Virus record (IMG/VR): IMGVR_UViG_2706794698_000005
From: a virus
Taxonomy: Duplodnaviria; Heunggongvirae; Uroviricota; Caudoviricetes
DNA length: 4,464 bases
Strand: one strand, 5' to 3'
Part shown: in pieces, positions 1-3,000 of the stretch
Layout of the letters: every line of letters begins with the position of its first letter
How positions within the stretch are numbered: position 1 is the first letter of the stretch
Position numbers: made by a program

Positions 1-3000
1 ACGGCAGCAAGCCAGTAATGGGTTAAGTGATAACAGGTGTCTGGAAATATAGGGGCAAATCCAGCGTTCATCAGCCCCCGCATTGCCGACAGGATCACAG
101 ACGGGGGGCGCAACTGGTTGTCGTTCAACTGGCCCAGCTACCGTTCTTGTATCAGAGGTGTGGCTGCATGACAACACCAGTCTGGCGTAATGATGACCTG
201 GAAGGCGCTGTCATTGGCGCATTCTTTCTGCGTGGGGCAGATCATGAAGTGATGGATATTCTGATCACACTACCGGCGGACATTTTTTCTGTACGAGCGT
301 ATCGGGATATCTACACAGGCATCTGCAGACAGGCCCGTGTTTCAGGAGTGATTGACCCCGTGCTGTTGTGTAATGAGATGCCGGAACTTGCCCCGGTGAT
401 TACTGATACCGGGCGTAAAACCTGGGTGAAGTCTTCACTGGAGCACTATGTTGCAGCGTTGCGGCGCAATGCCGCACTGCGCGATGCAGAAAAAACACTG
501 AATGAGGCGCTGCAGAAATTACGTGATGCGCATACCTGTGAAGCAGCTGAAGATGCCCTGAAGGATGCGCAGAACATGATGGTCACACTGTCGACAGGAA
601 AGGGCGTCATTCAGCCGGTACATATTGATGATGTGCTTCCGGAAGTGGTTGAGCGTGTTGAATGCCGGAATCAGGGGCTGGAGAAATCCAGGACGTTGAT
701 GACCGGTATTGATGAACTGGACGCAAAAACAGGCGGTATGGAGCCCGGAGACCTGGTATTCATTGCCGCCCGTCCTTCGATGGGGAAAACCGAACTTGCG
801 CTGGACATCATCGACAAGGTGACTGAGCAGGGGCATGGTGTGCTTCTGTTCACCATGGAGATGGCGAACATCCAGATTGGTGAACGTATGGTGTCTGCGG
901 CTGGAGGGATGCCAGTATCACGCCTGAAATCTGTGGCTCACTTTGAAGATGAAGACTGGGCGCGTTTCTCACAAGGGGTGGGGCGGATGACCGGGCGCAA
1001 TATCTGGATGGTGGACCAGGCGAACCTGACCATTGATGAGATATGCGCAACAACGAAACACCATCTGATTAAACATCCGGAAACGGCGCTGGTGGTGGTT
1101 GATTATCTCGGGCTGATAAAAACCCGAACCACGGGGCGTCATGACCTTGCCGTGGGTGAAATCTCAAAGGGGCTTAAAGGCCTGGCAAAATCCGGTGGTT
1201 TTCCGTTGATTGCGCTGAGCCAGCTCTCCCGCGGTGTGGAGTCCAGACATGGAGCGTTTCTTTTGAACAACCAGACAATGACTTTTACCTCTGAACAATT
1301 GCGTAAACACGCGCAGGAAATGTTGCGACAGGCGGAACAACTGGAAAAAACAGGTGTAACAAAAGATGCCATTCGTCGGGATATGGTGCCAGCGCTCAGG
1401 GAACTGATGCAGGCGAAACATCGCGCACAAAAAGCGGTGGATGAGCTCGTTGATTGTGTGGCAGAGCTGGAAACCAAAGTTGGAAAGTTTGAAAAAATGG
1501 TGCAGGAGGTGCTGCGCTGATGCGCCATGAGTTTATTTTACCTTATCCGCCGACGGTGAATACTTACTGGCGACGTCGTGGCAGCACATATTTTGTATCA
1601 AAAGTTGGTGAGCGTTATCGCCGTGATGTGACGCTAATTGTTCGCCAGCAGCGGCTGAAATTAAACCTGTCCGGAAGGCTGGCGATAAAGATTATTGCAG
1701 AGCCACCGGATAAGCGCCGTCGTGACCTGGACAATATCCTGAAAGCACCACTGGATGCGCTGACGCATGCCGGACTACTCATAGACGACGAGCAGTTTGA
1801 TGAAATCAATATTGTGCGCGGTCAGCTCGTTCCTGGTGGGCGACTGGGCGTGAAGATTTATGAAATCACAGGTGATAACGATGGCGCGTGATATTCAGCA
1901 GGTTATGGAACGGTGGGGGGCTTGGGCTGCAAACACTCATGAAGATGTATCCTGGGCGTCGATCGCTGCTGGTTTTAAAGGGTTAATTCCGTCGAAAGTG
2001 AAATCACGCCCTCAGTGTTCTGATGATGATGCAATGATAATTTGTGGCTGTATGGCCCGGTTGAACAAGAAAAATCAGGATTTGCACGATTTGCTGGTGG
2101 ATTATTACGTAGGTGGAATGACTTTTATGAGTCTGGCACGGAAACATGGGTGTTCGGATACCTGTATTGGCAAGCGCCTGCAGAAAGCGGAAGGGGTTAT
2201 TGATGGCATGTTGATGATGCTTGATATCCGGCTGGAGATGGACAGATACGTAGAACGAATTATGTAGGTGCTTGACCAGACACATTGTCCGGGGCTATAT
2301 TCCTCACGCGCCAGCAAAATCTGGCGTCGGGATTGGAACCCCGGATAGAGACCGCGACAGACACACGCCGCGAGCGTGTTTTTTATTGTCGTATGCACGC
2401 GCACATCTGAATTATGGTGGGGCGCATGGGGGAGCTGAAAAGCTCGCCGGTCGGTTTCCCGGTAGTTCCAACCCTGTGCGTCTCACCACCCGATGATTGG
2501 AACCTGACGGTGTTGACAGTTTCAGGTTTGCAGTTTACATTTCCCCGCGGTGCTCAAAACACCTCGAAAGCGGTATCCACACCCGATAGCCATGTGGTTT
2601 TTTTGTGTCCAGAATTCTTGGTTTATGACCGGGTGTGCGGCTAATANNNNNNNNNNNNNNNNNNNNNNNNNNNNNNNNNNNNNNNNNNNNNNNNNNNNNN
2701 NNNNNNNNNNNNNNNNNNNNNNNNNNNNNNNNNNNNNNNNNNNNNNNNNNNNNNNNNNNNNNNNNNNNNNNNNNNNNNNNNNNNNNNNNNNNNNNNNNNN
2801 NNNNNNNNNNNNNNNNNNNNNNNNNNNNNNNNNNNNNNNNNNNNNNNNNNNNNNNNNNNNNNNNNNNNNNNNNNNNNNNNNNNNNNNNNNNNNNNNNNNN
2901 NNNNGAAGGTAAACATTTTTTCCTGATAGAAGGTGATGCGTTACGAGAGTTGAAGAACGAAAACTCTTTAAGAGTTTCTGTGAAAATTGCCCGTAACGTT

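Follow-up and report, generated by a model that had tools for sequence, protein, structure and literature searches.

Probable fusion of a helicase reading frame to its downstream neighbor through loss of 293 bp in a cryptic Shigella sonnei prophage remnant

The window analyzed here, a stretch of 4,464 nucleotides from the IMG/VR virus record IMGVR_UViG_2706794698_000005 (Caudoviricetes), opens with the end of an insertion sequence (IS), which is followed by the remnant of a helicase-loader gene, a helicase ORF, rusA and the antiterminator gene Q (Table 1). The helicase ORF (168-1520, plus strand) encodes 450 residues from an ATG at 168. It is DnaB-like through residue 360, where the similarity ends in …ALSQLSRGVESR, while residues 361-450 form a stretch of 90 helical residues unrelated to DnaB. 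The initial annotation had described this loss of DnaB similarity after motif H3 and had put the unrelated helical tail at about 88 residues; the ORF and the loss of similarity are confirmed, and only the length of the tail has to be corrected to 90. It had also noted that the other two plus frames are blocked across 1249-1520 and that the ORF is translationally coupled to rusA. Translation indeed gave multiple stops in each of these frames, and the stop codon of the ORF overlaps the rusA start in the sequence TGATG (1518-1522). The protein is deposited in GenBank as CSI32883.1, "helicase [Shigella sonnei]", and was matched exactly on one contig, CWUY01000293.1 (assembly GCA_001260435.1), which has the same extent as the window. 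For both RusA and Q of the window, exact protein matches occur on at least 1000 Shigella contigs each; a look-up of RusA led to ten places, most of them on complete S. sonnei chromosomes.

Table 1. Features of the helicase region of the window. L006 is one of the S. sonnei chromosomes with an intact helicase, L001 an E. coli prophage, and P0167 the free-standing 85-residue protein of Shigella.
Feature	Position	Strand	Evidence
Right end of 1,331-bp IS3-family element (IS2-like)	1..63	+	IS ends labeled "IS3 family transposase", matched at 100%
DnaC/IstB-like helicase-loader remnant, last 35 codons and stop	64..171	+	Aligns to 3' end of L001 "ATP-binding protein" gene (2230-3108)
Helicase codons 1-360 and first base of codon 361	168..1248	+	100% identical to L006 8356-9436; Pfam DnaB, DnaB_C
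Putative deletion junction, 293 bp (L006 9437-9729) absent	1248..1249	.	Alignment to S. sonnei chromosomes; same gap versus E. coli prophages
Last five helicase codons and stop (M E R F F *); frame-shifted reading gives (H)GAFL	1249..1266	+	Alignment to parent
GGAG Shine-Dalgarno of 85-residue ORF	1251-1254	+	Within 1249..1266
Complete 85-residue ORF, TTG start 1263, alternative ATG 1278 (80 residues)	1263..1520	+	100% identical to P0167
rusA, RusA-family Holliday-junction resolvase	1520..1891	+	Pfam RusA E = 7.5e-15; phrog_34
Antiterminator Q, 128 residues as called; upstream ATG at 1860 gives 135 residues	1881..2267	+	Pfam Phage_antitermQ E = 2.7e-52

The domain content of the 450-residue protein is that of a helicase interrupted within its C-terminal domain. 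The Pfam DnaB_C model (PF03796) matches residues 177-361 (E = 1.6e-46) and covers profile positions 2-186 of 255, leaving positions 187-255 unmatched; in the intact 463-residue parent helicase described below, the same profile is covered from position 2 to 247 of 255. The DnaB N-terminal domain (PF00772) is matched weakly over residues 9-86, with 23.6 bits barely passing the cut-off of 23. Among the motifs of the RecA-type core, Walker A (ARPSMGKT, 201-208), VVVDYL (309-314) and H3 (ALSQLSRGVESR, 349-360) are retained. Motif H4 with its DNA-binding loop, which the parent carries at 364-381, is missing, as are the KQRNG arginine-finger hairpin (408-412 in the parent) and the final strands of the RecA core. 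The two relevant NCBIfam models are non-discriminating, since fusion and parent both score below their cut-offs: 205.6 and 308.4 bits, respectively, for TIGR00665 (cut-off 385.25), and 189.3 and 273.9 bits for TIGR03600 (phage_DnaB; cut-off 498.65). The parent passes the Pfam DnaB_C threshold with ease; by its low NCBIfam scores, its clade is a diverged branch of the DnaB family.

The window was compared with the seven chromosome-scale S. sonnei records that carry an uninterrupted helicase (L006, L008-L011, L013 and L014). Positions 1-1248 are 100% identical to all seven (L006 8189-9436), as are positions 1249-2646 (L006 9730-11127), except for L011, in which a one-base indel in Q lowers the identity to 99.9%. 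Between both blocks, 7/7 records contain 293 additional bases (L006 9437-9729). In these chromosomes, the gene calls give a 463-residue helicase (L006 8356-9747), an 85-residue ORF (9744-10001), RusA and Q. The stop codon of the parent helicase (TGA) overlaps the TTG start of the 85-residue ORF (TTGA); this ORF, for its part, is coupled to rusA. The intact allele (e.g., CP032523.1, encoding the 463-residue helicase P0166 and the 85-residue P0167) thus shares with the window complete nucleotide identity on both sides of the gap and the same upstream IS, rusA, Q, ORF6N and tRNA context, and differs in that the window lacks the 293 bp, by which two ORFs have become one. An intact helicase followed by the small ORF is likewise present in the E. 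coli prophages L001 and L002 and in phage phiP27, so that the full-length helicase, which the initial annotation had proposed to look for in related prophages beside separate nin genes, exists with a separate downstream gene in all three groups of relatives.

The missing stretch begins with the second base of helicase codon 361 and takes in everything through codon 458 (293 = 97×3 + 2 bases). As the 85-residue ORF lies in a frame other than that of the helicase, a deletion of 3n+2 bases leads the truncated helicase into the frame of the small ORF. The product consists of helicase residues 1-360, the pentapeptide HGAFL, which arises where the first base of codon 361 and the five final helicase codons are read in the shifted frame, and the entire 85-residue protein with its TTG read as Leu (residues 366-450). 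In total, the last 103 helicase residues (361-463) are lost, codons 361-458 being deleted and the last five read out of register. The junction at 1248|1249 reads …GAGTCCAGAC|ATGGAGCG… and is blunt in the alignment to the S. sonnei chromosomes; with 0 nt of microhomology at the breakpoints, it points to no particular deletion mechanism, and no repeat flanks the deletion. A 7-mer, CAGACAT, spans the junction (1244-1250) and recurs once within the deleted segment (L006 9494-9500). A two-step microhomology-mediated deletion through this 7-mer would be possible but less parsimonious, and its recurrence may be a coincidence.

From these comparisons, the ORF is most likely a fusion pseudogene which arose by one 293-bp deletion in a cryptic phiP27-related prophage remnant of S. 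sonnei. Such a deletion would 1) remove motif H4 with its DNA-binding loop, the next strand and the KQRNG arginine-finger hairpin and 2) shift ribosomes into the frame of the 85-residue ORF, giving a chimeric product. A deletion fusing the helicase to a downstream gene, and leaving a defective helicase, was one of two readings given in the initial annotation. It stands in substance, as 293 bases are missing between flanks of 100% identity, but two of its particulars do not: the deletion lies within the helicase gene instead of the nin region, and the fusion partner is not the 3' end of a gene but the whole 85-residue ORF, together with its Shine-Dalgarno sequence and its start codon, TTG.

The tail can be traced in the same way. 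Its 85 residues are 100% identical to the Shigella "hypothetical protein" P0167, which is found on at least 1000 contigs and is annotated in some of them as 80 residues from the ATG. The 85-residue protein matches phrog_2565 (E = 5.3e-31 over residues 2-84) and also phrog_2539, both PHROGs families without an assigned function, and is a homologue of the hypothetical protein L20 of phiP27. Its ORF is located directly after the helicase gene in L001, L002, L006 and phiP27. A Pfam scan of the last 89 residues, with E values up to 1, returned sub-threshold matches of coiled-coil type only, and the NCBIfam scan of the tail returned zero families. NinB, NinF and YbcN, which had been put forward as possible sources of the tail, are consequently ruled out by the lack of any Nin family match in Pfam or NCBIfam, and the L20 homologue takes their place. 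The GGAG (1251-1254), the TTG at 1263 and the ATG at 1278 of the small ORF all survive the deletion. Since the ORF keeps its own ribosome-binding sequence and start codons, and since the coupling to rusA is also kept, the 85-residue protein and RusA may both still be made. Two other proteins represent broken versions of this locus: P0012, from Shigella flexneri, begins in the end of an IS and continues into the latter half of the 85-residue ORF, and P0015, of 174 residues, combines an N-terminal part 97% identical to the 3' part of the small ORF with a recognizable C-terminal half of RusA.

What the helicase has lost can be placed on the structures of E. coli DnaB (PDB 6BBM and 7T22), to residues 34-461 of which the parent aligns with its residues 12-430 (E = 1e-64). 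The fusion resembles E. coli DnaB in retaining the N-terminal domain, Walker A, Walker B and H3. It differs in having no equivalent of residues ~393-471, to which the deleted part of the parent corresponds, and in carrying in their place a helical hairpin from another gene. The lost elements comprise the H4 region (parent RPMNSDLKNSGEIEADAD, 364-381), the strand that follows it (ILMLYRDE in the parent), the KQRNG hairpin, in which parent residues 408-412 correspond to 440-444 of E. coli DnaB and R410 is aligned to R442, and the C-terminus. The absence of the H4 region, of the arginine finger and of the last strands of the RecA fold, as stated by the initial annotation, is therefore upheld by the parent alignment, by the DnaB_C coverage and by the structural model.

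DnaB binds ATP where its C-terminal domains meet, with Walker A and B contributed by one subunit and, in trans, the arginine-finger β-hairpin by its neighbor (PMC12661323). Hydrolysis of ATP by DnaB takes place at these interfaces and makes use of the neighbor's hairpin. Because the fusion is without this hairpin and without the last strands of the RecA core, we infer from the missing motifs that it could not be an active hexameric helicase. In an AlphaFold2 model of the fusion, the N-terminal domain, the linker and most of the RecA core are predicted with high confidence. The strands of the core are confident only up to 347-351 and none follows residue 351; residues 361-372 are disordered (pLDDT below 50), and two helices (375-394 and 399-449) make up the rest of the tail. 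The alignment used for the model, which was not trimmed, pairs the tail with helicase C-termini and so biases the tail toward a RecA-like conformation; the tail is helical nonetheless. In this model, the tail does not complete the RecA fold, and the possibility of a complete fold, for which the initial annotation had proposed a structure prediction, is not borne out.

The second reading offered by the initial annotation was that of a genuinely distinct helicase subfamily; its DnaB-like members would carry a helical C-terminal domain in place of the H4 and arginine-finger region. The open frame and the prediction of the tail as well-formed helices are what such a subfamily would show. However, genomes that are otherwise the same carry the tail, with 100% identity, as a gene of its own behind an intact helicase, and the architecture was seen nowhere else in the searches. 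When a junction-spanning query of 161 residues was used, no second protein covering both halves was recovered from 253 shared-word candidates, a non-exhaustive set; the best coverage was ~60%, apart from one match of 73%, which is an ordinary helicase. Similarly, a 161-bp junction query against 5,426 complete E. coli genomes gave 66 records with at least 80% query coverage, the best 25 of which are without the junction and show two-piece matches spanning 454 bp, that is, the intact form with the additional bases. The exact junction string had 0 matches in species-representative genomes, a result which is uninformative as the isolate is not a representative. A distinct subfamily is accordingly rejected, its probability being close to nil. 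The comparison with isogenic genomes already explains the fusion, which is not a new helicase subfamily.

The fusion allele itself is rare. At least 1000 contigs carry the intact helicase P0166 in exact form, and 1 carries the fusion. This singleton comes from a draft scaffold of short reads, and its exact protein is listed from NCBI and not from independent Logan assemblies. An artefact of assembly or scaffolding has thus to be considered, in which the isolate would really carry the intact 463-residue helicase and a separate 85-residue ORF, the gap having arisen during assembly or gap closing. The restriction of the allele to exactly one contig of NCBI origin speaks for this explanation, as does the identity of the rest of the window to the reference chromosomes (100%). 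In addition, the runs of N at 2647-2904 (258) and 3270-3561 (292) differ in length from their counterparts in complete S. sonnei chromosomes, which measure 245 and 255 bases; the runs look like estimated scaffold gaps and not like length-preserving masks, which indicates that the region was assembled poorly. On the other side, overlap-based contig merging or gap closing is not expected to join ends without shared sequence, and the junction is blunt, with 0 nt in common and no repeat flanking the deletion. The join is also clean and leaves one open reading frame, although this has a one-in-three chance of occurring. An assembly error is therefore unlikely, though it deserves more weight than a new subfamily, and ordinary pseudogenization is favored. 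Whether the deletion is real or artefactual, the tail is the neighboring gene.

The surroundings of the helicase are those of a prophage in advanced decay. The draft contig ends at position 1 because the right end of an IS element lies there. IS ends like that at 1-63 occur in thousands of E. coli records (100% match), and the full 1,331-bp element, located at L006 6921-8251, is 99.9% identical to plasmid copies; in its size and terminal sequence, this IS3-family element is IS2-like. It adjoins the last 35 codons of the loader gene (64-171), whose homologue in L001 carries an IstB_IS21 domain. Beyond the IS, the complete chromosomes contain a fragment of an Ag43/AIDA-type autotransporter and a DUF5508 protein, not phage replication genes. 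In all seven complete S. sonnei chromosomes whose helicase is uninterrupted, the IS has already cost the remnant its initiator and, except for 35 codons, its loader gene. On the right side, an IS4-family transposase lies next to the portal gene (called at 343 residues, and at 292 residues in L012). In three other S. sonnei records (L005, L007 and L012), the same helicase has received an independent 1,263-bp IS3-family insertion (7322-8584), which duplicates the equivalent of window positions 397-400 and splits the gene into ORFs of 92-101 and 387 residues. A further trace of decay is seen in L011, in which an additional G in a G-run of Q (~10397, window ~1915) leaves no Q gene called.

In S. 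sonnei, the helicase has been orphaned by the IS, which took the place of the initiator, of the origin region and of the greater part of the loader gene; the helicase gene, now within a non-replicating remnant, is decaying in several independent ways. As the gene was already orphaned, its loss was probably neutral. The initial annotation had suggested that the fate of the helicase would bear on autonomous replication of the prophage. This point is moot, since initiator and loader were lost to the IS beforehand, and replication of the element is unaffected by the fusion. Numerous IS elements occur in Shigella genomes and turn genes into pseudogenes (PMC8072062). The IS-truncated loader, the IS within the helicase of other isolates and the IS4-family transposase near the portal gene are in line with this, whereas the lesion of the window differs in that it is a simple deletion and neither of its ends borders on an IS.

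Another fate that has been considered for the truncated helicase is a function of its own. Once expressed, alone or fused, it could serve as a poison or decoy subunit that interferes, for instance, with helicase or loader proteins of superinfecting phiP27-like phages; the open frame, the intact downstream coupling and a model that keeps most of the RecA core at high confidence, along with the linker and the N-terminal domain, would allow for it. Such a role is nevertheless very improbable: the allele, a singleton, shows no sign of having spread, no promoter-like site was detected between the IS end and the helicase start, and the presence of IS-broken copies of the same gene in other isolates argues against selection on it. 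Expression of the fusion as a poison or decoy against the helicase or loader of phiP27-like phages, with read-through from the IS as one conceivable route, is just as doubtful. Were it nonetheless the case, the host would enjoy an accidental protection against superinfection. As a product of pseudogenization, the fusion carries little biological weight; it would add a further stage to the breakdown of a cryptic prophage, in a species noted for gene loss driven by IS elements.

The closest phage counterpart of the region is phiP27 (NC_003356), with 94.4% nucleotide identity over the helicase and the small ORF. Its genes follow the order L18 (DnaC-like loader), L19 (replicative helicase), L20 (hypothetical protein) and L21 (Q). 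In phiP27, the helicase is intact (463 residues), the loader is complete and no rusA lies between L20 and Q, whereas the window shows the deletion, has its loader gene truncated by the IS and contains rusA.

For annotation, the entry CSI32883.1 calls for caution. The protein named "helicase" is a two-gene chimera, and its odd C-terminus should not be taken for a new domain architecture; at 90% identity, it clusters with genuine helicases.

Several further elements lie downstream of Q. Three Rfam models are matched at gathering score 3' of this gene: the c4-a1b1 targets (2295-2347), the Hfq-binding RNA isrK (2308-2384) and the C4 antisense RNA (2410-2493). This RNA module, with which a promoter-like site (2272-2301) and a terminator-like hairpin (2363-2379) agree, looks like a known regulatory cassette of the P1/P7 c4 type or the Gifsy-1 isrK type (2295-2493). 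It is followed by a gene with an ORF6N domain (antirepressor-like), which is partly hidden by the first gap. The second gap cuts a tRNA with a CAT anticodon, of which the 3' part is present; it is called Met by ARAGORN, and its E. coli homologue is a tRNA-Ile according to RefSeq. The tRNA cluster (3562-3861; L006 11982-12292) also includes tRNA-Arg(TCT), tRNA-Thr(TGT) and tRNA-Gly(TCC). From there, about 600 bp (3862-4464) lead toward the holin gene, which in the complete genomes starts 78 bp past the contig end. This interval holds only an ORF of 98 residues (4039-4335), with no Pfam family on record for its product, and occupies what we take to be the position in which Stx phages carry their stx genes.
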